From sequence record SRR9188677_168: a stretch of DNA of 64,000 nucleotides. One strand, 5' to 3'. Positions 4,559-40,709 of the stretch are shown in pieces. The translations under genes were made by a program, and so were the position numbers. The notes below the pieces were generated by a model. The model was not told the DNA's origin and did not search any database. It worked only from the letters and a program-made list of their open reading frames with translations. Positions within the stretch are counted from its first letter, which is position 1, and each line of letters starts with the position of its first letter.

Positions 4559-4589
4559 TAACCACTGATTGAAGAAAGTTAACCAAACG

Positions 4590-9719: not shown

Positions 9720-9829
9720 AGTTAATGTTGCCTGAAACATTATGCTTCGGGCAGTTTTAAAACCTGAGCCAGCCAGGAAGTGGAAACTTCGGTAGCCAGC
9801 TAATTTTTTGTTATGGATGAAACGGAGAA

Positions 9830-10747: not shown

Positions 10748-11296
10748 ATGACCGATCAGGAAAAACTTCAGTCAGTGGCTAAAGAAGCCATTGCGTTCAA
10801 AGGGCAGTTCAAAACAGTGCAACTGGCCAGCGTTAATGCGCAAGGGGTGCCTGAGGCAAGTTATGCCGCTTATGTTGAGCGTGATAACAAGTTTTATATC
10901 TATGTGAGTGAACTGGCAACACATTGTGCCAACCTGCGCGAAACCGGCCTGTGTTCCGCGATGTTTGTTGAGAGTGAAAAAGACGCGGGTCATCTTTTCG
11001 CCAGAAAACGCCTGGTGTTCAAATGCACAGCACAGGAAGTTGAACGTAGCTCAGCCAAATTTGATGAAGTGATGGCGCTTTTCTATGAAAAATTCGGCAA
11101 CTTCATGGATGCGATCGGTAAGTTGACCGATTTCCATATGATTGAGCTAATGCCAACGCATGGCAGTTACGTTGCAGGTTTTGCTAAAGCCTATCACCTG
11201 AATGGCCAAGATTTGTTACAAATCACACATCGTAATGACCAGGGCCATGCTGCACCAGACGCATCTGCACAACAGAAACTGGATGAGCTGGCATAA
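10748..11296 (+). CDS. HutZ/HugZ-like heme utilisation protein (pyridoxamine 5'-phosphate oxidase-like split barrel)
   Basis: PEASYA, YVSELATHCANL, LFARKRL, YVAGFAKAY; first gene of the heme operon. Confidence 0.82.
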   Translation: MTDQEKLQSVAKEAIAFKGQFKTVQLASVNAQGVPEASYAAYVERDNKFYIYVSELATHCANLRETGLCSAMFVESEKDAGHLFARKRLVFKCTAQEVERSSAKFDEVMALFYEKFGNFMDAIGKLTDFHMIELMPTHGSYVAGFAKAYHLNGQDLLQITHRNDQGHAAPDASAQQKLDELA

Positions 11297-11298
11297 CG

Positions 11299-12387
11299 GT
11301 GACTGAATCTCCAATCAGCATTGGCCACGCAAGCATACGTGAGCAATTTGTCATCGAACGCCAGGCGGGTAAACGTCATCGCGATATTGCTGAGAAATTG
11401 CAAATATCCGAAGGTGCGCTGATAGCTGCCCATGCCGGCGCACAAGAAGAGGCTTGGTTACTACAAGCCACCCGGCTGCAGGCAGACTGGCCAGCATTGA
11501 TGAAGTCGCTTGAGCCTCTGGGCGAGGTAATGGCGCTGACGCGCAATATTTCGTGTGTGCATGAAAAAACTGGCGTTTACAAGAAGGTAAGCGATACCGG
11601 GCATGTCGGGCTGGTGCTTGGTGGTGATATTGATTTGCGCGCGTTTTACAGTTATTGGGCGCATGGTTTTGCGGTGTCTGAGATGGGCGACAATGGTGTT
11701 CAGCAAAGCCTGCAGTTTTTTGACGCGCAAGGTACTGCCATTCACAAGGTATTTATTAAACCGCAAAGCGATGTCGAGGCTTATAAAGCCTTCGTCAAAC
11801 ACTTTGCGGATGAGAACCAGAAACCCGGTATTACCACCGTGCCTGCGCCGCCGCTGCCAGTAGATAAAGCTGATAACGAGATTGATGTTGCAGGATTTCG
11901 AGCCGCGTGGCGCGCTCTGCAAGACACGCACGACTTTTTTGGCTTACTTAAGCGGTATGGCGTTTCACGGTTACAAAGCATGCGACTTGCCGAAAAGCAG
12001 TATGTGCAGCAGGTCAACCAGCAAAGCGCACGTGAGTTGCTGGAAGCGGCGGCCAATGAAGGCGTTGCCTTGATGATCTTTGTTGCTAACCCTGGCATGG
12101 TGCAGATTCATTCCGGCATTGTTAAAAAAGTGGCGGTGATGGGTCCCTGGCTAAATGTCCTGGACCCGGGCTTTAACCTGCATTTGCGCGAAGACCATAT
12201 TGCGAGTGCCTGGGTCGTGCGCAAGCCAACGGTGGATGGCCTGGTCACTGCGCTGGAGCTTTTTGATGCTGAGGGTAATGTGATTGCCATGTTCTTTGGT
12301 GAGCGCAAGCCCGGAAAACCTGAACTTGCCGAGTGGCGTGCGCTGGTAGAAACGCTGCTCAAGGATCACGAACCATGTCTGAATTAA
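11299..12387 (+). CDS. hemS: Hemin-degrading/trafficking protein HemS/ChuS family
   Basis: LTRNISCVHEK, IDLR, AIHKVF, DTHDFF, QIHSG, FNLHL, FFGERKPG. Confidence 0.92.
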   Translation: MTESPISIGHASIREQFVIERQAGKRHRDIAEKLQISEGALIAAHAGAQEEAWLLQATRLQADWPALMKSLEPLGEVMALTRNISCVHEKTGVYKKVSDTGHVGLVLGGDIDLRAFYSYWAHGFAVSEMGDNGVQQSLQFFDAQGTAIHKVFIKPQSDVEAYKAFVKHFADENQKPGITTVPAPPLPVDKADNEIDVAGFRAAWRALQDTHDFFGLLKRYGVSRLQSMRLAEKQYVQQVNQQSARELLEAAANEGVALMIFVANPGMVQIHSGIVKKVAVMGPWLNVLDPGFNLHLREDHIASAWVVRKPTVDGLVTALELFDAEGNVIAMFFGERKPGKPELAEWRALVETLLKDHEPCLN

Positions 12388-13301
12388 AAAACCATATGCA
12401 TGATGTAGAGTCTTCACCGACCCGACGTAAATTCCTCCTGCAAGTAGGTGCGTTGGCCGCTGCCACTTGTTTGCCGCAGACTTGGGTCTGGGCCGCTGAG
12501 AGTCAGAAAAAAATGGCAAGGCGTATTGTCAGTATCGGAGGTGGCCTGACCGAAATCATTTATGCGCTGGGTGCCCATAACGAATTGGTCGGTGTTGATA
12601 CCACGTCGCTTTACCCTGAAGCGGCAACAAAACTGCCTAGTGTTGGGTATGCCAGAACATTATCCAGCGAAGGCATACTGGCACTGGCGCCCAACCATGT
12701 GCTGGCGACTGAAGATGCAGGTCCGCCAGCAGTCTTGCGGCAAATCAATGCCGCGGGTGTGCCTGTCACAGTGCTATCCGCTAATGATAAATTTGAAGGC
12801 GTGCTGGATCGGGTTACCCGCATCGGCACTTTGATAGACCGCCCTGCACAAGCCAGCCAGCTGGTGGAAAAAATGAAAGCGGACTGGCAGAAAGTGCGCG
12901 AGCCGATTATTGCGCGTAAAACGCCGGCACCGCGTGTGCTGTTTGTGCTATCGCATAGCCCAAGCCAGATCATGGTAGGCGGCAAAGGCAGCAGTGCTGA
13001 AGCGATGATGCATTATGTAGGCGCACAAAATGCGGTACAGGGATTTAATGGTTTTAAACCATTGACGCCTGAATCCGTGATCGCTGCGCAACCGGATATC
13101 GTGTTGTTTACCGATCAAGGCCTTGAAGTGGTCGGCGGCATTGATGGCGCATTGAAACTGCCGGGCCTGGCGCAAACGCCTGCCGGGCAAAAGCGTCGTA
13201 TCGCTTCGCTGGAAGCCATGTTTATGCTGGGCTTTGGTCCGCGCCTGCCGCAGGCCGTCGCAGCACTGGATAACGCACTGCTGAAAGCGATGAACGGATG
13301 A
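12375..13301 (+). CDS. hmuT: Heme ABC transporter substrate-binding protein
   Basis: GGGLTEIIYALG, VGVDTTS, VGYARTLSSEG (Tyr ligand), LGFGPR; twin-arginine-like leader TRRKFL; ATG 12375 preferred. Confidence 0.9.
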   Translation: MSELKNHMHDVESSPTRRKFLLQVGALAAATCLPQTWVWAAESQKKMARRIVSIGGGLTEIIYALGAHNELVGVDTTSLYPEAATKLPSVGYARTLSSEGILALAPNHVLATEDAGPPAVLRQINAAGVPVTVLSANDKFEGVLDRVTRIGTLIDRPAQASQLVEKMKADWQKVREPIIARKTPAPRVLFVLSHSPSQIMVGGKGSSAEAMMHYVGAQNAVQGFNGFKPLTPESVIAAQPDIVLFTDQGLEVVGGIDGALKLPGLAQTPAGQKRRIASLEAMFMLGFGPRLPQAVAALDNALLKAMNG

Positions 13302-14365
13302 GTGCCTCAACCAACGTGATGCCGTTCGCATCACGTTTAACAGCTGGCCTGATCAATCGGCCAGCTTTGTTTTTATGGGTGACCCTGATTATTTGTATCT
13401 GGGTAGCAGCGTGGGCGGGTGCAGTGAATGTAATGCCTGCCGACTGGCTGGCACTGCTGCAAGCAGGCGATGACCAACCGCTGACCGGCGGCGCCTATGT
13501 GCTGTGGAATCTGCGCCTGCCGCGTATCCTGTTTGCTGCATTGATAGGGGCTGCATTAGGGCTTTCGGGTGCGCTGACTCAAGGTTTATTCCGTAATCCT
13601 TTGGCTGACCCGGGTTTGCTGGGCGTTACCAGTGGTGCGGCTTGCGCGGCGGCTTTAACCATTGTGTTATTAGCTAACAGTGATATCCATATCCCCATCT
13701 CACTCCGCTACTGGATATTACCTGTCACGGCTTTTGCAGGCGCGATTGGTGTATGTTTTTTATTAGATACCGTCGCGCGCTGGTTAACGGCAGATTCAAT
13801 TGCCGGGCTGTTACTAACAGGTATTGCACTCAATGCTCTGGCCACGGCGGTGATTGGCTTATGTACTTACCTGGCTACCGACGAACAGCTGCGTAGCCTA
13901 ACCTTCTGGACCTTAGGCTCACTCGCTGGTGCGAGCTGGCCCCTGCTGCTGGCATTACTGGCGTTGCTGTTAGCCGCCGTCTGGTATGTACGCCGCCTGG
14001 TGAACGAGATGAATGCCCTGGCATTGGGCGAAGCCACGGCAGCGCATGTGGGTGTCAATGTGCGTCATTTGCGTGCGCGGGTCATTACACTGGTCGCTTT
14101 ATTGTGTGGCTTTGCCGTCGCCTGGTGCGGCATGATCGGCTTTATCGGCCTCGTGGCTCCCCATATTGTACGGCTGGTGATAGGGCCTGATCAGCGGCGT
14201 CTTGCGCCATTGTCAATGCTGGTCGGTGCCATTATTCTCTTGGTGGCCGATACCGCTGCGCGTACCGTGGCCATTCCAGCCGAAATCCCGGTGGGTATCT
14301 TTACCGCCTTGCTTGGTGCACCGTTCTTCCTGGTGTTGCTGGCCGGTATCCGGAAGGGAACGTAA
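13298..14365 (+). CDS. hmuU: Heme ABC transporter permease (FecCD family)
   Basis: LRLPR, QGLFRNPLADPGLLGV, IGFIGLVAPH, EIPVG. Confidence 0.92.
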   Translation: MSASTNVMPFASRLTAGLINRPALFLWVTLIICIWVAAWAGAVNVMPADWLALLQAGDDQPLTGGAYVLWNLRLPRILFAALIGAALGLSGALTQGLFRNPLADPGLLGVTSGAACAAALTIVLLANSDIHIPISLRYWILPVTAFAGAIGVCFLLDTVARWLTADSIAGLLLTGIALNALATAVIGLCTYLATDEQLRSLTFWTLGSLAGASWPLLLALLALLLAAVWYVRRLVNEMNALALGEATAAHVGVNVRHLRARVITLVALLCGFAVAWCGMIGFIGLVAPHIVRLVIGPDQRRLAPLSMLVGAIILLVADTAARTVAIPAEIPVGIFTALLGAPFFLVLLAGIRKGT

Positions 14366-14368
14366 TAC

Positions 14369-15175
14369 ATGTCTCTTTCAGCGAATCACGAGACTTTGCT
14401 TGCCCTGCAAAATGTCACTATTGATCTCGGCAAGCGTACTTTCGGCCCCTTTACATTATCGGTTAAAGCAGGTGAGCGTATTGCGATGCTGGGCCCTAGC
14501 GGCGCAGGCAAATCGACCCTACTCAAATTGCTGGCACGGGAATTAACCCCTGCCAGCGGTCAGGCTACTTTTTGCCAACGTCACCTGAGAGAATGGTCGC
14601 TGGCTGACTTAAGCCACCGCCGCGCCATTTTGCCGCAATCCCACGAAGTCGCTTTCGGACTACCCGTTGAACTGGTCATTGGCCTGGGCCGCGTTGCCAG
14701 AGCTTATGATCCTGACATCAGGAACATTGTCCGCCAGGCAGCGCAACTGGCATCTGCCGGACATTTATTAGAACGCCGCTTTGATACCTTATCCGGTGGA
14801 GAAAAGGCGCGCGTGCAAATGGCAAGGGTGTTTGCGCAGTTATGGGATGTTGAAAAAGGCCTGTTGCTGGTTGATGAACCACTCGCGGCACTGGATCCCG
14901 GGCTGCAATTCAGTTTAATGGATGCCATCTATACCTTTGCCGCACAACGCGGTCATGCCATTCTGGCAATTCTGCATGATATCAACCAGGCATTGCAGGG
15001 CTTTGAGCGGCTGATATTCATTAAGGATGGCTCTATGACGGGGGACTATACAAGCCAGCAGATGACCATTCCCCTATTAGAAACTCTTTACGACGTCAGC
15101 TTGATCAGCGCAGTCAGTGAGAGCGGTGAAGTGATCGTCGCACCTAGCAAATCGCAAAAGCATATTAGCAAATAA
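14369..15175 (+). CDS. hmuV: Heme ABC transporter ATP-binding protein
   Basis: GPSGAGKST, LSGGEKARVQMARVFAQL, DEP, LHDIN. Confidence 0.9.
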   Translation: MSLSANHETLLALQNVTIDLGKRTFGPFTLSVKAGERIAMLGPSGAGKSTLLKLLARELTPASGQATFCQRHLREWSLADLSHRRAILPQSHEVAFGLPVELVIGLGRVARAYDPDIRNIVRQAAQLASAGHLLERRFDTLSGGEKARVQMARVFAQLWDVEKGLLLVDEPLAALDPGLQFSLMDAIYTFAAQRGHAILAILHDINQALQGFERLIFIKDGSMTGDYTSQQMTIPLLETLYDVSLISAVSESGEVIVAPSKSQKHISK

Positions 15176-15239
15176 AGCTTCCATTCAAATCTTGTAGTCG
15201 AGTCTTTAGCAGGCACTCTGATACCTTCTTGAGTAATTG

Positions 15240-22118: not shown

Positions 22119-23423
22119 TTGCGTTCGTCTTTGCTGTTGATTCACCGCTGGCTGGGCCTAGCCAGCGCTCTGTTTCTGCTGATCACCGGCTTCACAGGTG
22201 CCATCATCTCCTGGGATCACGAACTTGATGAGTTGCTGAACCCGGCATGGATGCATAGCGAGTCTACCGGCTTGCATCAATCCAGTTTAGTGTTGGCCAA
22301 ACAAGTTGCAGAGCGCTACCCGCAGGTACAAGTGAGTTCTATCCCGCTGACGGTGGAGCCTGGGCATACACTGTCTTTGGGGGTGAGGCCGTTGCCTAAC
22401 CCGCCTGATGGCCTGGAACCTGTCAAATTTAACCAGGTGTTCGTTGACCCGGTGACAGGCCAGGAATTGGGCAAGCGCGAATGGGGGGCGGTTTGGCCGG
22501 TAGACCGTACCAATGTGATTTCCTTCCTATACAAACTGCATTACAGTTTGCACCTGCCTGAAATGTGGGGAATAGACCGCTGGGGGATCTGGCTGATGGG
22601 TGGAGTGGCGATCATTTGGCTGATAGATAGTTTTGTGGGCTTTTACCTGACATTGCCTAAATCCGGCAGAAAACCGCAAACGCGCCTGCATAAGGCGCAA
22701 GCGACGCATTCTGCAAATCAGGCTTCGTTCTGGAAGCGCTGGTGGCCGGCATGGAAAATGCGCTGGAACAGTAGTACCCATAAACGCTATTTCGATATGC
22801 ATCGCGCATTTGGCTTATGGACCTGGGTTCTATTAATTATTCTGGCATTCTCTGCACTTGCATTAAATCTGCGTCGCGAAGTATTTATGCCGGTGATGAA
22901 ATCTGCATTCACATTAACGCCTACCCCTTCAGACTTGCGTCCGCGTTTACCGCCAGCGCAGCAACAATCGCCAACAGTAGATTTTGAGCAGGTATTAGCT
23001 TTGGCGCTAAAAGATGCGCGTGCGCAGGGCTGGCAAGAGCCTGCGGGACGCATTTCATACAGTGCGGCTTATCAGTTATTTAACGTCGATTTTTATCGTC
23101 CGGATGCCGATCATGGCGTGGCTGGAGCTGGTCATAAGCGATTGTATTATGATGGGCTAGATGCACATTACGTCGGTAAACGTATTCCTTGGGAAGGTAC
23201 TGCTGGAGACGTCATTGTGCAGGCGCAGTTTCCCTTACACTCAGGTCGCATTTTAGGTATTCCTGGCCGTATCCTGATTTCTGTGATGGGTCTGGTAGTT
23301 GCAATGCTTTCGGTGACCGGTGTGTATCTGTGGCTGAAAAAGCGCAAGGCACGCAAAGTATCCTCACTCATCTTACAAGAGCAGGTGTTCGCATCTGAGC
23401 GTATACGTTCCATGTCACGTTAA
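22119..23423 (+). CDS. PepSY-associated TM-helix protein
   Basis: IHRWLGL, KLHYSLH, DMHRAFG, FPLHSG. Confidence 0.85.
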   Translation: MRSSLLLIHRWLGLASALFLLITGFTGAIISWDHELDELLNPAWMHSESTGLHQSSLVLAKQVAERYPQVQVSSIPLTVEPGHTLSLGVRPLPNPPDGLEPVKFNQVFVDPVTGQELGKREWGAVWPVDRTNVISFLYKLHYSLHLPEMWGIDRWGIWLMGGVAIIWLIDSFVGFYLTLPKSGRKPQTRLHKAQATHSANQASFWKRWWPAWKMRWNSSTHKRYFDMHRAFGLWTWVLLIILAFSALALNLRREVFMPVMKSAFTLTPTPSDLRPRLPPAQQQSPTVDFEQVLALALKDARAQGWQEPAGRISYSAAYQLFNVDFYRPDADHGVAGAGHKRLYYDGLDAHYVGKRIPWEGTAGDVIVQAQFPLHSGRILGIPGRILISVMGLVVAMLSVTGVYLWLKKRKARKVSSLILQEQVFASERIRSMSR

Positions 23424-30437: not shown

Positions 30438-31310
30438 TCAGATCTGCATCTGAATACGCATACTCAAATCAACAGCCTGAATATGCTTGGTCAGCCCGCC
30501 AATTGAAATCCGGTCAACGCCAGTTTCTGCAATCGCGCGCACTGTAGTCAGATCCACATTGCCAGACGCTTCCAGCAAGGCACGTTTCTGGGTCGTTGTG
30601 ACCGCTTTACGCAAATCATTCAGCGTAAAATTATCCAGAAGAATACTTTTCGCTCCGGCATCCAGTGCTTGTTGCAGTTCATCCAGTGTCTCGACCTCAA
30701 TCTGGATATTCTCGGTCTCGCAGATATCAAATGCGGCTTTCAGCACAGACGCGATGGAGCCTGCGGCAGTAATATGATTTTCTTTGATTAATATGCCATC
30801 GTAGAGCGCGAGTCGCTGGTTGGCACCGCCCCCTGTGAGTACTGCATATTTTTGCGCCAGCCGCAGACCGGGCAAGGTCTTGCGCGTATCCAATACCTTG
30901 GCAGGCAAATCCGCAATGAGTTCGGCATATTGCCGGGTGTGGGTAGCAACCGCAGATAATGTTTGCAGGAAGTTTAACGCCGGGCGCTCGGCACTCAGCA
31001 TGGCACGGGCATCGCCTTCTATGGCTACCAGCGTCTGATTTGGCTGCACGAGGTCGCCATCCTTAACGTACCAATTTAAGGTGATTGTCGGGTCCAACTG
31101 CATAAAACATTGCTCTACCCAGGCACATCCACAAATTACAGCCTTTTCACGACTGATGATGGTCGCTGAAGCACGTGTGCCTGAAGGAATGAGGTCCGCA
31201 GTAAGATCACCTTTGCCTATGTCTTCCTGCAAAATCGCTTTAACCTGCTCGGCAATTAACACTGCATTCAGGTAAGGTGGCAAGGTTTGGTAGATCGAAG
31301 ATTGTGTCAT
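30438..31310 (-). CDS. nadC: Nicotinate-nucleotide diphosphorylase (carboxylating)
   Basis: DTRKTLPGLR, IKENHI, EVE, LLDN, EASG; ATG 31310 preferred. Confidence 0.95.
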   Translation of the reverse strand: MTQSSIYQTLPPYLNAVLIAEQVKAILQEDIGKGDLTADLIPSGTRASATIISREKAVICGCAWVEQCFMQLDPTITLNWYVKDGDLVQPNQTLVAIEGDARAMLSAERPALNFLQTLSAVATHTRQYAELIADLPAKVLDTRKTLPGLRLAQKYAVLTGGGANQRLALYDGILIKENHITAAGSIASVLKAAFDICETENIQIEVETLDELQQALDAGAKSILLDNFTLNDLRKAVTTTQKRALLEASGNVDLTTVRAIAETGVDRISIGGLTKHIQAVDLSMRIQMQI

Positions 31311-31453
31311 GAGGGTATCTACATGATTGAAAATTATGCATGGGACAATTTTAAGCCCATGCCAAAAGCTATTATAATAAATAGCGACCCGGGACATCAG
31401 TTTTTGTGACCGGCTTTTTTTCTTAAACAGCACCTTTCATTGGCAAACACACT

Positions 31454-32077
31454 ATGCAGCTTTTATATACGGTTAACAGTCCTTATGCACGCAAGGTTCG
31501 CATCGTTGCCATCGAAAAACACATTGATCTCACATTAACTAGTGTCGTGCTGGCTGAGCCTGACTGTCCTGTCAGTCAATTCAACCCGCTGGGCAAAGTG
31601 CCGGTGCTGGTGCTGGATGATGGTGAAAGCCTTTATGACTCGCGTGTCATCGTCGAATACCTGGATCACCGTACGCCAGTGGCTCATTTGATTCCACAGG
31701 ATCATCTGGCCAAAATCAAAGTGCGTCGCTGGGAGGCCTTGGCTGATGGTGTCTGTGATGCAGCGGTTGCGGTGATGCAGGAACAGCGTAAACCTGAAGC
31801 GCAGCAAACAAGCGCCTGGATAGAGAAGCAAATGGCTAAAGTAGTCGCCGGCCTGACGGCATTAGATAACGATCTCCTCAAGAAAAAGTGGTGTGTCAAT
31901 GAAACATTCAGCCTCGCCGATATTGCCTTGGGTACCACGCTGGGTTATATCGATTTGCGTTTCAAGAGTACCCAATTAGAGGGTAAATACTGGCAGGAGA
32001 AGTTTCCTAACCTTGCCAAACATTATGGCGTGCTGGTCAAGCGCCCAAGCTTCAAACAGACCATGCCGCAACCGTAG
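31454..32077 (+). CDS. Glutathione S-transferase family protein
   Basis: SPYARKVR, NPLGKVPVL, LYDSRVI. Confidence 0.9.
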   Translation: MQLLYTVNSPYARKVRIVAIEKHIDLTLTSVVLAEPDCPVSQFNPLGKVPVLVLDDGESLYDSRVIVEYLDHRTPVAHLIPQDHLAKIKVRRWEALADGVCDAAVAVMQEQRKPEAQQTSAWIEKQMAKVVAGLTALDNDLLKKKWCVNETFSLADIALGTTLGYIDLRFKSTQLEGKYWQEKFPNLAKHYGVLVKRPSFKQTMPQP

Positions 32078-32271
32078 AAAAACAGCTTCCAGACAATAAC
32101 AGTCTTGAAGCTATTATCTTTTTTGTTGCAGTCAAGACTGCAATCACATTTAGCTAAGTTGAATTGTCATTTCAATTTAGCTGTCATTAAGCCGCTAGCC
32201 ACCGGTCACGTTAAATGTTGTAAAAAGTTCCATTGATCACTATAAGTCTTAAATTTCCCGTTGATAATACA

Positions 32272-32290
32272 AATGATAATTGTTATCATT
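32272..32290. promoter_or_regulatory. Fur box at the promoter of the orphan/PEP-CTERM unit
   Basis: AATGATAATTGTTATCATT inside the palindrome CAAATGATAATTGTTATCATTTG; TTGATA -35-like at 32261-66; identical to the box at 15240. Confidence 0.9.
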
Positions 32291-32325
32291 TGAGAATACA
32301 GTATTAATTAACGGTTAAAAACTTC

Positions 32326-32526
32326 GTGATGGATGCCAGCGTGCCACTAAAAAAAAGATTGCTTGAATTAGTCGATGAGCTAATTGCGCATGATGGTTTT
32401 GGCAGCATCAAGGTAGATATTCGTCTTTTAAAGCGCGGTCAGAAGGAAGTGATTATTGATTGCGGAAAGCAGTATCGATTTGTGGTGGATTTTCAGCCTG
32501 CTGCAGAACTAGCTGACAGCAAATAG
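32326..32526 (+). CDS. Small hypothetical protein (66 aa; helix followed by beta strands)
   Basis: First ORF after the Fur box; protein-like sequence HDGFGSIKVDIRLLKRGQKEVIIDCGKQYRFVVD; weak RBS; start 32326 or 32329. Confidence 0.7.
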   Translation: MMDASVPLKKRLLELVDELIAHDGFGSIKVDIRLLKRGQKEVIIDCGKQYRFVVDFQPAAELADSK

Positions 32527-32550
32527 CTCGCTGGTTGGTTGAATTAAATC

Positions 32551-32880
32551 GGGGATATTTCCCCAAAAGTTCCGACGGCATGGGGCCGTGGAAATGTTGA
32601 GTTGAGTAGTTCGCCCGCAAGCGCCTTCATGAGGAAGGGTCAACGGCATTATCCATGGCACCTTGTTTCTACTTGGGTTTCTACCTAGGTTTCTACGTGG
32701 TATTGCATGCTTATGTTCATAAGCATCATCTCGCCTCTGATTACATACTCAACAAGACATTAAAAGATTCGTTTATCTGCAGGACTTATGTCTTGTAGAG
32801 CAGCATATGCTGCAAACGAGCATGCCAGCTACCTCTAACTAGGAGAAGAGGGGTAGCCGGTTTAATGGGCTTGTGCCCGT
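32551..32880 (+). ncRNA. Candidate structured cis-regulatory RNA or ncRNA of unknown family
   Basis: Non-coding gap packed with stems, several with G-U pairs and nested closure (see findings); folding judged by eye. Confidence 0.5.
32665..32700 (+). repeat. 3 x 12-bp imperfect tandem repeat (GTTTCTACnTrG)
   Basis: GTTTCTACTTGG / GTTTCTACCTAG / GTTTCTACGTGG. Confidence 0.9.
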
Positions 32881-32900
32881 ATGACTATGGAGAAGAAAAA

Positions 32901-33827
32901 ATGATGAATCAACTAAGTTTCAAACCACTTTCAATCGTTGCATTGACTGCTTTCAGTCTGAATATTGGCTCGGCTTTCGCTGCGATACCTACCGGTATTC
33001 AGGATGCTATCCCTGTCGCTAAATCGCTGAATGGTACTAAAAAGGATGACGGCTGGTATAACCTGAGCGCAGCTTCTCAAACCAAAACGGTGGATGGTAC
33101 GCCGGTTACGATCGCTGGTATCCCTGGTGGTGGCTTCCCGGGTACAGCACCACTGCCTAATGTGGTCTCACAGGTTAAATCTGACACTGACAATTCAGCG
33201 ACTTTCAGAAAGGTGAGCAATGGTGCCGCAGGTGGCGCTTTCCCATCAAGTGAAAGTCTATATGCCGGCTCTTTCAGCGGTGCTTACAATTTTAACGGCG
33301 GCAAGCTGGGTGTGTTTGAAACTGCGCCTGTTGAGAATCTGGCCAACGTAGTATTTCAGGTAGAGCTTGGCGGCGCCAATGGTTATGATTTTTACCAACC
33401 TTCTGTCGGGGCTACAATTACAGCGGGCGGGGCTTCAGCCTTGTCGGTAGGTGCTTTAACCGTGACCAACTACTTCCCTACACTCAACCTGACATTTGGA
33501 GATAACACAACAACCCAGTTATCTGCCAACTGGGCTGAACTGAGCACCAAAGGCCAGAACGGTACAACAAGTGCTGGCGGTACTGAAGAGCCGATTTACA
33601 TCAACCTGTATGCATTCCAATGGGATCTGAGCGGCTACAGCAATATTTCATCGTTCAATGTGATTTTCGATGTGGTCGCTCACAGTCAAACCTACGCAGC
33701 CCGCCTGACACAGAGCGACACGTTCAATCAAGTGGTTGCGGTACCAGTGCCTGAACCAGAGTCATATGCAATGATCCTTGCGGGATTAGGCTTGATCGGC
33801 TTTGCAGCACGCCGCCGTCAGGTTTGA
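32901..33827 (+). CDS. PEP-CTERM sorting-domain surface protein 1
   Basis: Signal peptide; C-terminal VPEPESYAMILAGLGLIGFAARRRQV; ATG 32901 follows GGAG. Confidence 0.9.
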   Translation: MMNQLSFKPLSIVALTAFSLNIGSAFAAIPTGIQDAIPVAKSLNGTKKDDGWYNLSAASQTKTVDGTPVTIAGIPGGGFPGTAPLPNVVSQVKSDTDNSATFRKVSNGAAGGAFPSSESLYAGSFSGAYNFNGGKLGVFETAPVENLANVVFQVELGGANGYDFYQPSVGATITAGGASALSVGALTVTNYFPTLNLTFGDNTTTQLSANWAELSTKGQNGTTSAGGTEEPIYINLYAFQWDLSGYSNISSFNVIFDVVAHSQTYAARLTQSDTFNQVVAVPVPEPESYAMILAGLGLIGFAARRRQV

Positions 33828-34066
33828 TACAAGAGCCAACGTTGAGAGATAAAAGACCTGTTGTCATTTGAAGGTCTTTATCTCGCTCTAGGCAACCCTC
33901 CGAAAGTCGCTGGTTGCCCACATAAGCGTTAAAGGTGTTTGTCCATGCTTAACAAGCATGGAAATTAAATACTCGACGGTGTGAGTCCGTGAGGCTTATT
34001 TTGAGGTAAATGGCGTATCACCTTCAAGAGGAAGGGACTTATGCGCTGTAAGAGGAGACTTATAAA

Positions 34067-34726
34067 ATGAAATTATCAGCTTTAGCTTTGGCTTTGGGTA
34101 TGGCATTCAGTGGTTCTGCATTTGCTGCAGCGGCTACCTGGAACTCCGCAACACCATGGGGTAGCGATGCTACTGCATCTTTTGCGCAGTGGAGTGCTAT
34201 TGAATCTATCAATGACACTACTCCGGATGCCGGTTTTAGCGGTGCCACTTCTGCTTCGTTGCGTGAAACATCCGGCAACGGATTCGTGACTGGTGGCGGC
34301 CTGGGTGGCAACATCTACAGTTTTACAGGCACAACAACGTTCACCGCTACTTTGGGTGGCGGCGCGACTACGGGTTTATTTGATGTGTACCTGCGCATCG
34401 GTACCATTGGTGAGGTTGCAGGTACATCAGCAACTTTAAATGGTACTGCAGCCACTTCAGTCGTGTGGGATGGTGGTGCAGCAGGTGGTCCATTTGGTGG
34501 TGCTGCGCAAGAGGTGTACTGGAAATGGGAAGACGTTACAGCATCCAGCCTGTATACATTTAACTTCGCTGCTATTGGTCCTCACATGAGTCTGGATCAA
34601 GTGGCGCTGGCAACAGTTTCTGTGCCGACAGTCACTCCTGTACCAGAACCAGAAGCGTTCAGCATGATGGCACTGGGCCTGGGTCTGATGGCATTTGTTG
34701 CACGTCGTTCTTCCAAAAAAGCCTAA
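34067..34726 (+). CDS. PEP-CTERM sorting-domain surface protein 2
   Basis: Signal peptide; C-terminal VPEPEAFSMMALGLGLMAFVARRSSKKA; GAGGAG RBS. Confidence 0.9.
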   Translation: MKLSALALALGMAFSGSAFAAAATWNSATPWGSDATASFAQWSAIESINDTTPDAGFSGATSASLRETSGNGFVTGGGLGGNIYSFTGTTTFTATLGGGATTGLFDVYLRIGTIGEVAGTSATLNGTAATSVVWDGGAAGGPFGGAAQEVYWKWEDVTASSLYTFNFAAIGPHMSLDQVALATVSVPTVTPVPEPEAFSMMALGLGLMAFVARRSSKKA

Positions 34727-34747
34727 TTCCGGTTAGTAGCTTTCATA

Positions 34748-34777
34748 ACAAAGGGGCTTTTATAGCCCTTTTGTTTT
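34748..34777 (+). terminator. Intrinsic terminator between PEP-CTERM gene 2 and the TonB receptor
   Basis: ACAAAGGGGCT...AGCCCTTTTGT stem ending in T-rich sequence. Confidence 0.65.
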
Positions 34778-34809
34778 ACCTGAATATTAACGAATAAGTA
34801 AAACACCCC

Positions 34810-37143
34810 ATGTTGGCAAGCCTTAAATATTACTGGCAATTCACAAAAACAAAGAACATTCCAACTATGTGGCTTTGTGGTCTGGTCGTTTTAGCGACAT
34901 TGTTAATTACCAGTCCGCATGTATCAGCAGCAGAAGATGCTGCACAAGAAGAGTCGCAAACTAAAGCGGTAAACACGCTCTCGCCAGCGGTGCCTCAACA
35001 GACTGAAACGGACAAGTTAGAGACCTTACCTGAGGTATCTGTCAAAGACAAAAGAGTCATTGAAAATTCAGGCATCAACCGGACACTTCCAATTACAACT
35101 ATCACGTCTGACCAGTTACAGCGTAGTCAGCCTAGCAATATCTTTGATGCCGTGCGATCAGCTCCAGGCGTATCTATCAACGGCGGTCCCCGCCCAAGTG
35201 GTATGTCATTCAATATTCGAGGCTATGAGGACAATGAAGATGTGCTGGTCAAGGTCGATGGAGTACCTAAAGGGTTTGAGAAGTACCGGATGGGTGGCAC
35301 ATTTATTGAGCCAGAATTACTTAAAAGTATAGAGATTCAACGCGGTCCGCAAATTGCCAGCGGATCAGGCTCGTTGGGGGGAACCGTCATCGCAAATACT
35401 AAGGATGCCGAAGATTTTTTGAAGCCTGGTCAGAAATATGGCGCAAAAGTCAAATTCGGCTATGGTAATAATAGTGATGAGTATTCCCGATCCTATTTAC
35501 TGTATGCCAGGCCTGATGAGCGAGTGGATATTCTTTACAACTATTCAAACAGGACTGCCAATAACATTACATTAGGTGATAATTCCAAGCTGGCAAATTC
35601 AGCGATACAGTCAGTTTCTCATCTACTGAAATTCAGTCTTTTTCCGACTGAGGATTTGCAGTTGGTCACTTCTATAGTTAAGTTTGAGGATTCAGGACTG
35701 CAGCAATATGATGTGAATTCCGCGACGCCAGGTTTCTTTGGTAAAACTATTCGCTCCGTGGACGATTTCACATGGTCTGAAACCGTAAAGTACAATCCAG
35801 ACCATCCATGGGTGAACCTTAAAGCTATTGTAGGTGCTGGACACTCGGATGTTGAGGATTTTTTCCCGCCAGGATTCTCTGATGTGGTAAACCGGGCTCA
35901 ACCTGATTGTAACGGGATTATTTACATACCTGATCCAAGCAACACTGGAATATGCAGGGGTAATGCCACGGATACTTACAACTTCAAAACCAGGACTGTC
36001 GATATTAGTAATGAGGCGATTTTTGCCGAGAAGGGGTTTTTCAATGTCTCATTATTAACTGGTTATCAATATAATTTCAGTCATCGCGATGTGACTCGCG
36101 TTTTTGATAATGCGGTGATTAGCCCTGTCGGTGGCTTTAATCCTGCTGTCCCACCCGGAACGAAAACCTTTCATGCGATTTATATCCAGCCAAAATTTGA
36201 AATTGGCCAGGTAAGTATCATTCCTGGCTATAGGCAGGATATATATAAAGTAGAGGCAGATGGCGGCACATTAGCTTTGCTGAGACGCTTTGGTCAAGAA
36301 AGTAAAATAGAGTTCAAAGAAGAAACCTGGAGTTTAGGGTTGGCCTATGATTTTTTTGATAGAAAAAATCCAGAGAAACTGACGCTTTACAGCAATTATG
36401 GACAGGGATTCCGTCCGCCTTTGATCGATGAGTATTTCACACAAGGCCCATTTGGTTTTTGCAGATCAGCATTTATGCCGACACAGGGAAGACCTTCAGA
36501 AATTTGTGGTGATTACTACAAACCACAATTGTCCGAATCGACGGAGGCCGGCGTAAGTTATCAAACCCCACATCTGCTTGGCACCGATGTATTTTTCACC
36601 GGCAAGCTTAATTTCTTTCATATCAATACTTCAAGATTGCTCTCATCTTTAGGTGAGGATAATGGGCGTGTGACGCAGGATGGCTGGGAGCGCAGAAATG
36701 GGGTTGAGATCGAAAGCTTTGTCCAATACAAAAGCTTATATGCGCGTGCCGGATACTCTCGGATTACAGGAGAGCAGGTCACAGGTCATCTCGATTTGAT
36801 TAATACGCCACTTTTCACTGCGCCTGGTAATACCTTCAATTTGAATGTCGGCGCTGAATTAAGCAAGAGTGTCGATATCAACTTAACTTACAGGAGGGTC
36901 TCAGAGAGGGACATCATTGTCGGTGGTTCTGGGACACTCCTTAATCCCTACAGATTTGGTATCCAGGATGGATATGAATTATGGAATGCCGGTGTCCGTT
37001 GGAAGGCCAGCGAACAACTAACGTTCAGATTGATCGGGGAAAATCTGAAGAATGAGTTTTATAACCTGAATGGTTCATTCGGATCTCTTGGTTTGCCAGC
37101 GCCTGGCCGTAATGTCAAATTTCTGGTCGAGCTGACATATTAA
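34810..37143 (+). CDS. TonB-dependent receptor, heme/hemoglobin-receptor-like
   Basis: PGVSINGGPRPSGMSFNIRG plug, FIEPELLKSIEI.RGP, FRPP (FRAP-like), C-terminal PAPGRNVKF.VELTY. Confidence 0.85.
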   Translation: MLASLKYYWQFTKTKNIPTMWLCGLVVLATLLITSPHVSAAEDAAQEESQTKAVNTLSPAVPQQTETDKLETLPEVSVKDKRVIENSGINRTLPITTITSDQLQRSQPSNIFDAVRSAPGVSINGGPRPSGMSFNIRGYEDNEDVLVKVDGVPKGFEKYRMGGTFIEPELLKSIEIQRGPQIASGSGSLGGTVIANTKDAEDFLKPGQKYGAKVKFGYGNNSDEYSRSYLLYARPDERVDILYNYSNRTANNITLGDNSKLANSAIQSVSHLLKFSLFPTEDLQLVTSIVKFEDSGLQQYDVNSATPGFFGKTIRSVDDFTWSETVKYNPDHPWVNLKAIVGAGHSDVEDFFPPGFSDVVNRAQPDCNGIIYIPDPSNTGICRGNATDTYNFKTRTVDISNEAIFAEKGFFNVSLLTGYQYNFSHRDVTRVFDNAVISPVGGFNPAVPPGTKTFHAIYIQPKFEIGQVSIIPGYRQDIYKVEADGGTLALLRRFGQESKIEFKEETWSLGLAYDFFDRKNPEKLTLYSNYGQGFRPPLIDEYFTQGPFGFCRSAFMPTQGRPSEICGDYYKPQLSESTEAGVSYQTPHLLGTDVFFTGKLNFFHINTSRLLSSLGEDNGRVTQDGWERRNGVEIESFVQYKSLYARAGYSRITGEQVTGHLDLINTPLFTAPGNTFNLNVGAELSKSVDINLTYRRVSERDIIVGGSGTLLNPYRFGIQDGYELWNAGVRWKASEQLTFRLIGENLKNEFYNLNGSFGSLGLPAPGRNVKFLVELTY

Positions 37144-37159
37144 ATCCAGTTTCATAGTT

Positions 37160-37198
37160 AAAAAATAAAGCCCCAGTTACTAATGGGGCTTTTTCTTT
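37160..37198. terminator. Bidirectional terminator between the convergent Fur-boxed units
   Basis: AAAGCCCCA-gttactaa-TGGGGCTTT with an A tract upstream and a T tract downstream. Confidence 0.8.
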
Positions 37199-37203
37199 AA
37201 ATC

Positions 37204-38154
37204 TTATGGCTGTTCTTGTTTTATAGAATGCCTACGGCGTGCAGCCAAACTAATTAGTCCTAAACCCGTTACTAACATAAGAAAGTTGCCCGGTTCCGGC
37301 ACTGCGGAGACATTTACTTGCCAACCGATATCTTTAAACGCTGCGTAGTCCAGAACAGTCGGCAATTCACGTTGGCCTCTTACTGTACTTGGATCCATCA
37401 GTGTTTCCTGTGTGACGCCGTTGTAGGTGCTCGAAACACCTGGTGCCCAGTGACTACGATATTGGTCTACAGGAACCGCACTACCATAGCTTGCAACGGA
37501 TGCTGCGCCAGTGAAGTAGCCGTTATCGATTTGCGCTAGCCATGAATCTGCTTCGCCGAAACCAAGAATATGCCCTATTTCGTGTGTTGCTGTGGTGAGA
37601 AAATCCGGGCGCTCAACGGTCAAACCACCAACATCACTGCCGAAGTACCAATCGTTGGCGGCATTGAACCAGATCATGCCACCCCATACAGCATAATCCG
37701 TTGCTGCAGGACCGGTTGTATTGGCTTGTCCGCGGGTTGTCACTGAATCTACAAATGCATCAGACCCGGTGGCGATAAGGTTGTAACCAGTATCGGCGAA
37801 GCCTAATACTCCTGGTGCCGAGGAGGAGCCACCTACATAAATGCGCAATGTGTCTGAAGCGATGTTGAGGTTGTTTAAGGTGATAGGTGCACCTGCCAAG
37901 CTGGGGTGCGTCATTTGTACAGACCAGACGTCACCGGCCTGTGGTGTGATTGCCGTCAATGTATCGGTAAATGTGTTGTAAAAGGAAGCAGCTCGATCAA
38001 GGATCGCTCTACGCTCAAGAAGTGGTGTTCCCGTGACAAGGTCTGTAAAAAAGCCTCTGGTATCGTACGTGTAGTCAAATTCGATGGTAAGCGCTTGTGC
38101 TGGTATGGTGGCAAGTAACCCTACAGCTGCCGCTGATATGTGCAATTTTTTCAT
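37204..38154 (-). CDS. PEP-CTERM-anchored zinc metalloprotease (metzincin, leishmanolysin/M8-like arrangement)
   Basis: Signal peptide MKKLHISAAAVG; HEIGHILGF...SHW...TLMDP; C-terminal VPEPGNFLMLVTGLGLISLAARRR; ATGA overlap with the upstream gene. Confidence 0.82.
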   Translation of the reverse strand: MKKLHISAAAVGLLATIPAQALTIEFDYTYDTRGFFTDLVTGTPLLERRAILDRAASFYNTFTDTLTAITPQAGDVWSVQMTHPSLAGAPITLNNLNIASDTLRIYVGGSSSAPGVLGFADTGYNLIATGSDAFVDSVTTRGQANTTGPAATDYAVWGGMIWFNAANDWYFGSDVGGLTVERPDFLTTATHEIGHILGFGEADSWLAQIDNGYFTGAASVASYGSAVPVDQYRSHWAPGVSSTYNGVTQETLMDPSTVRGQRELPTVLDYAAFKDIGWQVNVSAVPEPGNFLMLVTGLGLISLAARRRHSIKQEQP

Positions 38155-38891
38155 GTGTTTTTTCTTCCTTTTAACAGCAGGATTGATAACCCCCCCAGCA
38201 ACAATGCCCATGTACCAGGTTCAGGCACTGGTATTGCGGATAGTGGTGTGACAGCACCTGTACCTGTACCATACACATCTTGTAGTGTGGCGATCATCAT
38301 GTTATTTAACGGGAAAACCGGGCCGGTATAGGCAGAGTTCGACAGTATTGAATTCCCAGGGTCATCTGAGTCAATGTAATGCCCCATACCTAGCGAGTGG
38401 CCCAATTCATGCTGTGCGACTGCATAGAATAAAACCTGGCTCCAGCCAAAACCGAAACGCTGTCCATTGAATATCACATCGCCAGCTAATCCACTGGTGT
38501 CGGTGTCCTGGGGGAAATAAGCATAGGCATTGGCATCATCCACATGCGGCACCACCCCGATCCGGATATCAGCCAGGCCAGTAGGATCGTATTGCCCTGT
38601 TTCCGGTAGCGGGCCATGATCAGCCACTTCTACAAAGTGAATAGGCAACACTGCAGCATAGTCAGCAAATGCCTGTTCGAATGCGCTGCGCATAATGTCT
38701 GTTGAAAGCGATTGTCCGGCAGTGCTGATAATCCCGCCATCAAATAAATTGCTGTAGCTGTATGTCAGGGTAATTGGGGAACCTATGCCATCAGGCTGGT
38801 CCCAACTTGCATACATGGGATAATAGCCCCCCCAGGCAGTGCCCGATACCAGGCAAGCCAGTACCGTTGCACGATGTAAATGCTTGAACAT
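38151..38891 (-). CDS. PEP-CTERM-anchored matrixin (M10)-like metalloprotease
   Basis: Signal peptide; ADIRIG, AYAYFP, GDVIFN, HELGHSLGMGH, LQDVYG; C-terminal VPEPGTWALLLGGLSILLLKGRK. Confidence 0.85.
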   Translation of the reverse strand: MFKHLHRATVLACLVSGTAWGGYYPMYASWDQPDGIGSPITLTYSYSNLFDGGIISTAGQSLSTDIMRSAFEQAFADYAAVLPIHFVEVADHGPLPETGQYDPTGLADIRIGVVPHVDDANAYAYFPQDTDTSGLAGDVIFNGQRFGFGWSQVLFYAVAQHELGHSLGMGHYIDSDDPGNSILSNSAYTGPVFPLNNMMIATLQDVYGTGTGAVTPLSAIPVPEPGTWALLLGGLSILLLKGRKNT

Positions 38892-38950
38892 GCTTCATCC
38901 TCTCAAAACTATTAAATTTATTGTCTGGTGATTTTACCTCATTAAATGTT

Positions 38951-38969
38951 AATGAGAATTATTATCAAC
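38951..38969. promoter_or_regulatory. Fur box upstream of the protease pair
   Basis: AATGAGAATTATTATCAAC about 60 bp upstream of the minus-strand ATG at 38891. Confidence 0.75.
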
Positions 38970-39201
38970 ATAAATTTATAAGTTTTTATAGTGAAAAAAA
39001 CTATATTCAGAGAGGTAAGCTGAAGTTGTAAATGAAGCTTTGCAAGCAGGAGTTTTTGCTTGATAAATAAATTATCTAACGTGGATGGATAGCTTAATCT
39101 GCAAATAGAACGGAGCTTTTAAATACGGGGGTGGAGTGTATCCACTGGCTTTTTCTCGACGCCTTAAAATTCCAGCACCGAGTTATTCTGATGAGTCTGT
39201 T

Positions 39202-39534
39202 TTAGAGTGGCGCGACGTCATCGTCGTTAATCAATGTATGCAGATTGTTCTTTTGGCGTAAGGTCTGGCGTTCGTTCAGGCGTTTCTGCGCGGCACTCGG
39301 GAAATCAGTATAACTGATCAGGTTGCGCTCGATCAGAATGCTGATCAGGTCTTCCAGCACGCGTGCCAATTGAATGTCACTTTCGCGGAAAGTGTGGTGC
39401 TTTTTGAGTTCTTCGTCCAGAAAGTGTAGATAGTCGGTATCTGAATTTTCTACTTCTATCCAATCAGCAGACACTTGTGTATCCGGGCTTGCGGCAATAA
39501 TTGCACCTTCTTTATTTTTGAGTATGTAGGCCAT
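39202..39534 (-). CDS. Hypothetical protein
   Basis: Good RBS (AAGGAA); SDIQLARVLEDLISILIE..LI.YTDFP.AAQ motif; function unknown. Confidence 0.75.
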   Translation of the reverse strand: MAYILKNKEGAIIAASPDTQVSADWIEVENSDTDYLHFLDEELKKHHTFRESDIQLARVLEDLISILIERNLISYTDFPSAAQKRLNERQTLRQKNNLHTLINDDDVAPL

Positions 39535-39614
39535 CAGGTGTCATTCCTTGTCACTTTAGGTGTGAGTTATTGTTTATCAGGAAAGCAAAAGCAATAACCA
39601 TGCCTTTTGATTGC

Positions 39615-40709
39615 TTAAATCGCGCCATTAATGATGCCACCACCCAGGCAAACATTGCTTTCATAAACGACCACACTTTGTCCTGGCGTAATCGCCCATT
39701 GATGCTGACCAAAGCGGATGGTCGCTTCCTCGTCATTCACCGCATCGACTTCGCATGGCGCATCCGGCTGGCGGTAGCGGGTTTTGGCCGCATAAACCCA
39801 GTTGGTACGTGGCTGTTCGCCGCTGATCCAATGCAATTGCCCGGCAGTCAGGCCGTCACTTTGCAGCAGTGGGTGATCGTGTCCTTGCACTACAATCAGT
39901 TCATTGCTGACCATGTCTTTGCCTGCTACAAACCAGGGTTCGCCGTTACTGTCGCGGCTGCCACCAATTTTCAGGCCCTGACGCTGCCCGAGCGTGTAAT
40001 ACATCAAGCCTTCATGTTCACCGACGACTTTACCTTCAGGTGTACGCATGATGCCAGGCTGCCTTGGTAGATAACGTTGCAGGAATTCCTGGAACGGGCG
40101 TTCGCCGATAAAACAAATACCGGTGGAGTCCTTTTTTTCGGCATTGATCAGCCCATGCTCGCGCGCGATCTCACGCACTTCACGCTTCAGATATTTACCC
40201 AAAGGAAATAATGTTTTGGATAACTGTGCCTGGTTCAGGCGTGACAGGAAATAGCTTTGATCCTTGCTGCCGTCATCTGCTTTCAGCAGCTGATAGTTGC
40301 CCGGTTGAATCGGGTTCTCACGTACCTGGGCATAATGACCAGTGGCAATTAAATCCGCACCCAGGCTCATCGCATGGTCTAAAAATGCCTTGAATTTGAT
40401 CTCGGCATTACACAGGATGTCAGGGTTAGGTGTACGGCCAGCCTGGTACTCTTCCAGAAAGTTAGTGAATACTCGCTCTTTGTATTCCTCACTAAAATTC
40501 ACGGCTTCAATGTCGATCCCTATCTTGTCAGCGACAGACACGGCATCGATCAAATCCTGCTTCGAAGAACAGTATTCATCAGTGTCATCGTCTTCCCAGT
40601 TTTTCATAAACAAACCGGTGACATGGTAGCCTTGTTGCTTTAACAACAAAGCGGTAACGGAAGAATCAACGCCGCCGGACAGGCCGACGATTACATGTGG
40701 CTTACTCAT
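39615..40709 (-). CDS. mnmA: tRNA-specific 2-thiouridylase MnmA
   Basis: [43 protein letters not shown] 40709. Confidence 0.97.

Follow-up and report, generated by a model that had tools for sequence, protein, structure and literature searches.

Why proteins with exosortase sorting tails should be encoded next to a TonB-dependent receptor, under what looks like iron control, is the question raised by a locus at 32.2–39.0 kb of SRR9188677_168, a stretch of 64,000 nucleotides that we refer to as the window. Its closest proteins indicate that the window derives from Methylophilus, a methanol-using bacterium, and the nearest genome compared (G001) has 52% of the window's words in common. The locus is flanked by a glutathione S-transferase (GST) gene and by orf110-mnmA, and consists of two convergent units. 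The rightwards unit contains a small open reading frame (ORF) coding for 66 residues (orf66; 32326–32526), the genes for two PEP-CTERM proteins, which we call PEP1 (32901–33827, its ATG at 32901 preceded by a GGAGAAG ribosome-binding site) and PEP2 (34067–34726), and a TonB-dependent receptor of the heme/hemoglobin clade (34810–37143). The unit on the opposite strand encodes MP_B, a matrixin-like (M10) metzincin with a PEP-CTERM tail (38151–38891), and MP_A, a PEP-CTERM metalloprotease-like protein (37204–38157). The two units meet at a single bidirectional intrinsic terminator (37167–37192) with a 9-pair stem and T runs on both strands, and every part listed in an earlier note on this DNA was found where that note had placed it. 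We think that the locus probably encodes a Fur-repressed system for the acquisition of heme (or of iron from hemoproteins). A more specific version, which we put forward tentatively, is that PEP2 (together with PEP1) represents a new class of exosortase-sorted heme or hemoprotein capture proteins that feed a dedicated, co-inherited TonB receptor, aided by iron-regulated PEP-CTERM metzincins and governed by orf66 acting on a new cis-regulatory RNA.

The earlier note had set co-occurrence of these genes in other genomes as the decisive point, and the module does recur, in genomes and in metagenomes. Its core is orf66, PEP2 (in one to three copies) and the receptor, and it is found in the Methylophilaceae, in other Burkholderiales and in metagenomes. 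The order orf66-(PEP1)-PEP2-receptor is present in the window and in 20 orf66-bearing Methylophilaceae loci. It lies between the GST gene and orf110-mnmA at all 14 Methylophilus genome loci compared. Among seven loci from other genera of the family, six (L107–L111, L113) have one to three PEP2 genes in tandem after orf66, with the receptor gene and hemS-hemT-hemU-(hemV) next in line; the seventh (L112) has no hem gene within the stretch examined. PEP2 is present in 10 genomes of an even sample of 401 from the order, and all five of these that fall outside the Methylophilaceae (L161–L165) have orf66-PEP2-receptor beside hemSTUV; hemSTUV directly adjoins the module at these 11 genome loci. PEP2 keeps its place between orf66 and the receptor in genome loci that range from ~42% to ~70% G+C. 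A scan of metagenomes with an orf66 profile gave 281 relatives, and among the best 80 loci, which were analysed, a PEP2 gene follows orf66 on the same strand in 54 of the 65 with at least 1.5 kb of downstream sequence, the receptor follows in 39 of the 46 with at least 3.5 kb, and hemS is present in 25 of the 80; in one of them (L195) orf66 is followed directly by hemS and hemT. The loci are not phylogenetically independent, and several of the metagenome contigs are probably from the same species as the genomes. A different order is seen in L205, L215, L222 and L225, where a weak PEP1-like PEP-CTERM protein (27% identity), the receptor, orf66, PEP2 and hemSTUV are encoded on one strand.

Each unit begins with a Fur box, as had been claimed. 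That of the orf66 unit (32263–32293) matches 13–14 positions of the 19-bp consensus and that of the protease unit (38948–38972) matches 14–16, and each overlaps promoter-like hexamers, TTGATA-17-TATCAT in the first case (32261–32293 with the box, rightwards; promoter-like score 10/12) and TTCTCA-16-TAAAAT in the second (38931–38972, leftwards). There are 31 Fur-type sites of at least 13/19 in the window compared with 11.1 in 50 shuffles (maximum 19), and those of at least 14/19 are all upstream of iron genes, at 4537, 6178 (tonB), 15237, 17656 and 23507, in addition to both locus boxes. The sites at 15237, 17656 and 23507 are upstream of siderophore receptors, and both locus boxes have the same core as the boxes of tonB and of these three receptors. 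The boxes are also conserved in orthologous loci: all 20 Methylophilaceae loci examined have the AATGATAATTGTTATC core 50–90 nt ahead of orf66, a box of at least 14/19 is present at 39 of 76 metagenome orf66 loci as against one of 332 control windows, and the 16/19 box upstream of the proteases is kept in all seven orthologous Methylophilus loci. These matches suggest that both units are under Fur-type control. Four RNA runs with the species label of the best-matching DNA source yielded 0 reads, which does not bear on expression either way.

PEP-CTERM tails had been assigned to four proteins of the locus, and all four carry one: PEP1, PEP2 and MP_B match PF07589 (38.6, 28.5 and 23.7 bits; cut-off 20.7), and MP_A is recognized by TIGR02595 only (18.2 bits, cut-off 16), its PF07589 score of 19.1 bits falling under the cut-off. 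Sec signal peptides can be read from the translations (GSAFA/A in both PEP1 and PEP2, IPAQA/L in MP_A, GTAWG/G in MP_B), and an exosortase is present in G001 (XrtB, 327.5 bits against a cut-off of 275). Of 361 Methylophilaceae species genomes 35 contain orf66, and an exosortase (PF09721) is found in 32 of these 35, compared with 136 of the 361 overall. In PEP1 the signal peptide is followed by a two-part beta jelly roll and the tail (AlphaFold2 pLDDT 84), and in PEP2 by a single jelly-roll domain and the tail (pLDDT 83); the C-terminal ~70 residues of the two are alike (29–33% identity by tblastn). An alignment of 21 PEP1 homologues has W52, K104, Y121, Q153, D163, W241, D242, H261 and Q271 invariant, and one of 35 PEP2 homologues has W25, P30, W31, W42, Y84, E149, W154 and D177 invariant. 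Foldseek searches of the PDB gave no match for PEP2 at E ≤ 1e-3, and a Foldseek run with PEP1 yielded birnavirus capsid and tailspike rows alone, with low TM-scores and no clear fold match. In a protein atlas PEP2 found other PEP-CTERM clusters only (best score 0.78), and a PEP2 profile run among 1.84 billion sequences found 40 representatives at E ≤ 1e-30 and 306 at E ≤ 1e-10. PEP2 paralogues (~30% identity, some in tandem) are present in G001 (C1:705587–706948) and in G341 (C7 and C10), where there are no iron genes, Fur boxes or leader.

The PEP1 family is small, with 28 loci among 185,579 species genomes, and spans Proteobacteria, Verrucomicrobia and Planctomycetes. Seven Burkholderiales loci found with PEP1 keep PEP1-PEP2-receptor (L052, L053, L059, L062, L063, L065, L067), and PEP1-PEP2 is also found in an eighth locus, L057, where no receptor match was seen. 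One of the seven, from Roseateles (L065), continues after the receptor with a lipoprotein gene, orf66, a heme oxygenase gene (PF01126) and a second orf66. In Luteolibacter PEP1 lies two genes before a TonB receptor; in the other Verrucomicrobia and in Armatimonadetes no iron genes were seen in the PEP1 contexts. The lipoprotein in L065 (Roseateles agri, 11731–12987), encoded directly after the receptor, has 418 residues, includes a long Pro/Ala/Ser linker and lacks Pfam domains. In two Verrucomicrobium loci (L066, 7764–11699; L070, 7632–11741) PEP1-like domains are found inside proteins of more than 1300 residues with PATR (autotransporter passenger) repeats.

PEP2 and the receptor vary together. 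In the window and in G001, G123 and G147 the flanking proteins are 99–100% identical; PEP2 and the receptor of the window are likewise 99–100% identical to those of G123, but 57–63% identical to those of G001 and G147. Pairwise identities of PEP2 correlate with those of the receptor (r = 0.67; Mantel 0/2000), compared with r = 0.22–0.26 for either of them against mnmA or GST and r = 0.91 for mnmA against GST. The trees of PEP2 and the receptor have the well-supported groups {window, G123, G154}, {G153, G132}, {G146, G143} and {G124, G152} in common, the first two of which are at odds with the tree of mnmA. Purifying selection acts on all genes, with ratios of nonsynonymous to synonymous substitution rates (dN/dS) of 0.03–0.13 (the mnmA value for the window against L041, an artefact, was left out). 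Fast positive selection as the source of the PEP2 and receptor divergence is ruled out by their dN/dS values of 0.03–0.11 and by saturated dS between allele classes; the two genes are old, diverged alleles that have been exchanged together by recombination, and not products of recent fast evolution. Such a pattern fits surface-exposed partner proteins, and we propose that PEP2 is the core partner of the receptor, acting as a heme or hemoprotein capture protein or as a co-receptor.

The region between orf66 and PEP1 had been described as a structured leader, and the folding z of −4.98 for this 338-nt segment bears the description out. The leader is near-invariant in seven loci whose downstream genes differ by up to 40%. 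A motif of ~110 nt is present twice in the window, at 32560–32674 (rightwards, with hairpins P1 and P2 found by pattern matches; 69.9 bits with a covariance model) and at 33961–34070 (rightwards, 102 bits), where it ends at the PEP2 start codon; elsewhere there is one copy per operon, before the first PEP2 gene, and in the loci that make up alignments A4 and A6 it lies ~45 nt ahead of PEP2. Hairpin P1 (CUC-A-ACGG ... CCGU-GAG) has compensatory changes in three pairs, with 20 double-change cells as against 7.0 ± 2.2 in 500 shuffles, none of which reached 20, and at most four when the partners are slid. Within the family there is no variation in hairpin P2 (CCUUC-NNGRG-GAAGG), which in high-GC genomes is replaced at the same place by CCUCC-GAGGY-GGAGG or CGUCC-AGGGC-GGACG. 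There is covariation in P1, by computation, and in P2 of the high-GC genomes, by direct reading. A further outer helix, P2a, can form in 27 of 29 sequences from strands that differ in sequence, yet its energy relative to shuffled flanks is not significant (mean z −0.48). The covariance model, run over 475 kb of window and loci, found no further copy except two weak, correctly placed matches (L165, E = 0.06; L053, E = 0.82), and Rfam 15 gave no match at E ≤ 1 over positions 31000–40000. In G367, a member of another family of the order, an HPRE-like GCCAGCCAG repeat precedes PEP2 in place of the leader motif. The repeat agrees with an element given for chuR/vbuA in the available part of a preprint on ChuP (10.1101/2022.02.10.479982), which also describes HmuP/ChuP as acting on HPRE elements in the 5′ untranslated region of heme receptor genes.

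The product of orf66 was previously called an orphan, a label that we withdraw: its family comprises 386 clusters, none of which has a Pfam domain. It is small, predicted to be cytoplasmic and without a signal peptide, and is strongly conserved across genomes of ~40% to ~70% G+C, with 18 invariant residues (including H22, C46 and Y50) and dN/dS of 0.04–0.13. The orf66 gene occupies the position that HemP/ChuP has in operons of the hemPRSTUV type. A relationship to HemP itself was considered and rejected, since hhalign against true HemP gave a probability of 0.1% and the hemP model PF10636 had no match at E ≤ 10 in three members of the family; when five genomes were searched for hemP in the course of the family search, only the true hemP of G001 matched. 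Comparison of the orf66 profile with the PDB gave chance-level rows only. By analogy with HmuP/ChuP we propose that orf66 encodes a small regulator, and that it may act on the leader described above. In one metagenome lineage (L229, L234, L245, L247, L248) the genes after orf66 encode two or three proteins of prepilin type (N_methyl, T2SSG-like), and the same control circuit may there drive a different surface display.

The note's description of the receptor as heme-type holds in part. The protein has Plug and barrel domains, its best NCBIfam models by far are the heme/hemoglobin models TIGR01785 (241.4 bits) and TIGR01786 (226.7 bits), the solved structures closest to it are those of ShuA (a heme/hemoglobin receptor), PhuR and HasR, with FrpB and TbpA next, and it is linked to hem genes as noted above; the assignment falls short, however, in that both scores are below the curated cut-offs and the classical histidines are lacking. 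Conserved in 30 orthologues are Y159, Y218 and a Cys pair, C382/C566.

Taken as a heme acquisition system, the locus would be an operon of the hemPRSTUV type in which orf66 replaces HemP and one to three PEP-CTERM jelly-roll proteins, PEP2 and in some lineages PEP1 as well, have been inserted before the receptor. Under iron limitation Fur would leave both boxes, and a single transcript would run from orf66 to the receptor with a two-hairpin leader before each PEP gene, on which orf66 may act. PEP1 and PEP2 would be exported by Sec, processed by an exosortase (presumably of the XrtB type found in G001) and finally located on the cell surface or in the matrix, where they would capture heme or a heme-carrying protein and hand it over to the receptor, with which they would dock; hemSTUV/hutZ would then import and use the heme. 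The two PEP-CTERM metalloproteases would be an optional add-on, probably degrading carrier proteins near the cell.

Several observations weigh against this interpretation. In classical heme receptors a His is conserved both in the plug and within the FRAP-NPNL box; among the 30 orthologues of the receptor no His column reaches 80%, there is none within FRPP...KPQL, and the scores above compare with curated cut-offs of 316.85 (TIGR01785) and 323.75 (TIGR01786). PEP1 and PEP2 each contain a single His, that of PEP1 (H261) being invariant and that of PEP2 variable; no heme-binding signature was seen in either, and no known hemophore fold appeared in the fold searches, where the best hits to PEP2 in a wide VIA search (Z 8.5 at most) were at the level of background and came from carbohydrate-binding modules, ephrin-receptor and phage parts. 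The module of Methylophilus does not adjoin hemSTUV, and a true HemP is encoded elsewhere in the window, so that orf66 need not be its equivalent. PEP1 is accessory, with full-length relatives in only eight of 361 Methylophilaceae species genomes; at least five metagenome loci have prepilin-type instead of PEP-CTERM proteins after orf66; the proteases are absent at 7 of the 14 Methylophilus genome loci, with G001, G146, G125, G153, G126, G132, G124 and G152 listed as lacking them; and the correlation between PEP2 and the receptor could arise from their adjacency alone.

The alternative that survives best, unlikely as we consider it, is that this is an ordinary heme receptor operon carrying passenger matrix proteins, with PEP1 and PEP2 having structural or polysaccharide-binding roles in a change of biofilm under iron stress. 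The classical association of PEP-CTERM proteins is with exopolysaccharide and with the formation of flocs, there are weak matches to the NCBIfam model floc_PepA at the locus, the only structural neighbours of PEP2 are the carbohydrate-binding modules with Z of ~8, neither protein has a heme-ligand motif, and the PEP2 paralogues of 30% identity elsewhere are away from iron genes. Against this, PEP2 is fixed between orf66 and the receptor across genomes of ~42% to ~70% G+C, has its own conserved leader that is present nowhere else in the 475 kb searched, and is exchanged together with the receptor. PEP1, moreover, is linked to heme genes in another phylum: in an Opitutaceae metagenome-assembled genome (Verrucomicrobia) a pair of PEP1 genes precedes those for HemS and a periplasmic binding protein (hemS-hemT), without an adjoining receptor.

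A rather improbable second alternative is that the receptor takes up some other metal complex or protein-bound metal, with PEP2 and PEP1 acting as protein 'metallophores' similar to ZepA of Anabaena, and that the linkage to hemSTUV reflects a common iron regulon. The receptor scores and the missing pair of His residues speak for this reading, and ZepA shows that a PEP-CTERM exoprotein regulated by a member of the FUR family can serve metal uptake; the taxonomic spread of PEP1 also resembles that reported for ZepA in the part of the paper available (PLoS Biol 2024, PMC10957091). Against it, hemS, hemT, hemU and hemV adjoin the module at 11 genome loci and a heme oxygenase gene does so in Roseateles, the boxes are of Fur type, common to siderophore receptors, and not of Zur type, the G367 locus has an HPRE-like element, and PEP1 and PEP2 with one His each differ from ZepA, which is described as having His ligands and a His-rich N-terminus (PMC10957091).

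The M10-like protease of the earlier note is MP_B, which matches Peptidase_M10 (PF00413, 32.1 bits, cut-off 24), has as its nearest solved structures the catalytic domains of matrix metalloproteinases (E = 4e-6), and has HELGHSLG[ML]GH invariant in eight of eight orthologues (HELGHSLGMGH in the window), in agreement with the HExxHxxGxxH motif. The M8-like label given to MP_A has no database support: Pfam and NCBIfam scans gave no Peptidase_M8 match, and its metzincin-like matches are weak (NF038122, 46.6 bits against 80; M10, 19.9 against 24). HExxHxxGxG is kept in 19 of 19 MP_A homologues (HEIGHILGFGE in the window), and the third-ligand position is E, S, L, A, T or I. The pair is at the same site in seven other Methylophilus species genomes (G123, G154, G129, G147, G143, G138, G130). 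In G367 the genes are arranged on one strand as hemSTUV, orf66, a 251-residue PEP-CTERM protein, MP_B, MP_A, PEP2, receptor and a second receptor, with 61% (MP_B) and 68% (MP_A) identity to the window; an MP_A-like PEP-CTERM protein is encoded 1.7 kb upstream of orf66 in G394, and MP_A precedes orf66 in metagenome locus L230. Methylobacillus homologues of MP_A (40–51% identity) are far from the module, and those in L123–L127 and L133 have a 14–16/19 Fur site just upstream, with none at that level in L128–L132. MP_B matches in L205, L215, L222 and L225 are C-terminal overlaps with the weak PEP1-like gene and were not counted as proteases. The proteases are optional yet recur with the module in several independent contexts, and the inclusion of PEP1 and the proteases as parts of one system stands as far as this recurrence goes, but not as a general rule, both being accessory and missing from many loci. 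That the metalloproteases instead process their own PEP-CTERM proteins (e.g. shedding PEP1 and PEP2 into a diffusible form) or serve general scavenging in starvation seems very unlikely to us, although they are optional, have homologues unlinked to the module in Methylobacillus and are expected in the compartment of PEP1 and PEP2 because they have the same sorting tail, and nothing decisive speaks against it, the Fur boxes of the unlinked homologues and the in-operon placement in G367 fitting either role.

The heme acquisition model has parallels in several known systems. In two-part receptors such as HasA-HasR, HmuY-HmuR, hemophilin HphA-HphR, HpuA-HpuB and TbpB-TbpA the accessory gene is just upstream of the receptor gene. 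As here, the gene for a small exported protein immediately precedes one for a heme/transferrin-clade TonB receptor, and partner and receptor covary between strains. The fold of PEP2 differs, being a jelly roll with no structural match to those proteins in the fold searches, as does the route of export, which involves type I secretion, lipoprotein/Slam or type IX secretion there and, as predicted from the genes alone, Sec and exosortase here. Gingipains with HmuY-HmuR and the sortase-anchored Isd system are similar in having proteases or capture proteins that are sorted by C-terminal signals and co-regulated with a heme transporter, but gingipains are cysteine proteases with type IX secretion tails whereas MP_A and MP_B are metzincin-type with PEP-CTERM tails, and Isd uses sortase and NEAT domains where the present system would use a Gram-negative exosortase and has no NEAT domains. 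The closest match in organization is the hemPRSTUV/chuPRSTUV/hmuRSTUV type of operon (Yersinia, Chromobacterium violaceum), which, in the parts of the sources available (10.1101/2022.02.10.479982, PMC6158557), likewise has Fur control, a small first gene, a TonB receptor of the heme clade, adjacent hemS and a hemTUV ABC importer (adjacent in sister taxa in our case) and a conserved 5′ leader element on the receptor side. The differences are that our first gene is not HemP/HmuP, that PEP-CTERM genes lie between it and the receptor, that the leader motif is unlike the HPRE sequences quoted there except in G367, that the receptor has no conserved His, and that optional PEP-CTERM metzincins accompany the module.

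ZepA is the nearest precedent for the PEP-CTERM component, and the available part of its description (PMC10957091) presents it, under UniProt accession Q8YRD3, as an exoprotein with a PEP-CTERM tail that is regulated by Zur and serves zinc uptake; genes for TonB transporters and further PEP-CTERM proteins lie in its neighbourhood, and a hand-over to an outer-membrane receptor is proposed. There the metal is zinc and the regulator Zur, in contrast to the Fur boxes and heme genes here; no fixed receptor operon and no proteases are described for ZepA in that part of the paper, and the histidines were compared by description only (PMC10957091). The earlier note's supposition that the arrangement is undescribed is upheld for the heme or Fur version, of which we found no description in the literature searched, subscription journals being thinly covered; as regards a metal-regulated PEP-CTERM protein with TonB transporters it is not, ZepA being a precedent (PMC10957091). 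What is new here is the orf66 family, the covarying two-hairpin leader and the exchange of PEP2-receptor alleles.

The locus is a compact and genetically tractable system in free-living methylotrophs that would tie exosortase sorting to nutrient uptake, with a single promoter, a proposed small regulator, a leader, one or two candidate capture proteins and a receptor, the proteases being optional. To our knowledge very few PEP-CTERM/exosortase substrates have a known function, and the heme capture systems that we know of have been worked out almost only in pathogens. If correct, the heme acquisition model would carry the precedent set by ZepA over from zinc to heme, and would bring with it a new fold for a hemophore or co-receptor, a family of HemP-like regulators and a candidate for a regulatory RNA. 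The more specific version with a new class of capture proteins would give a defined physiological role to the large and mostly function-less class of PEP-CTERM proteins in environmental Betaproteobacteria and Verrucomicrobia. The model would further bear on how non-pathogens in methane- or methanol-fed communities obtain iron from the hemoproteins of their neighbours. With their old allele classes, which are inherited jointly, PEP2 and the receptor constitute a natural experiment on partner specificity.

Upstream of the locus, at 4.5–28 kb of the window, there is an iron island that includes a paralogue of ribosomal protein S4, hemP, tonB-exbB-exbD, a PepSY_TM protein, a cupredoxin gene, hutZ-hemS-hemT-hemU-hemV, four siderophore-type TonB receptors and a PiuC-type dioxygenase. 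The hemSTUV and hutZ genes are at 10748–15175, 17 kb upstream of the locus. The true hemP (5764–6015, rightwards; PF10636, 44.1 bits) is just upstream of tonB-exbBD, and a GCCAGCCAG motif like the published HPRE is found at 9768–9776, upstream of the cupredoxin gene (9830–10306) and then hutZ-hemSTUV; there may therefore be two small-protein/leader circuits for heme genes in this organism. The S4 paralogue (4977–5591, rightwards) heads the island and has a Fur-box-like site upstream (4537–4561). In the distant genome G394 an S4 paralogue is also present (L161, 10831–11532), between the MP_A-like gene and orf66. Two PepSY_TM proteins are encoded in the island, both rightwards, one after exbD (8325–9470) and one between siderophore receptors (22119–23423), and presumably belong to the type often described as siderophore-interacting reductases. 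On the other side of the locus orf110 (39202–39534, leftwards) encodes a conserved protein of 110 residues without a family match, and always forms the mnmA-side flank in Methylophilus.

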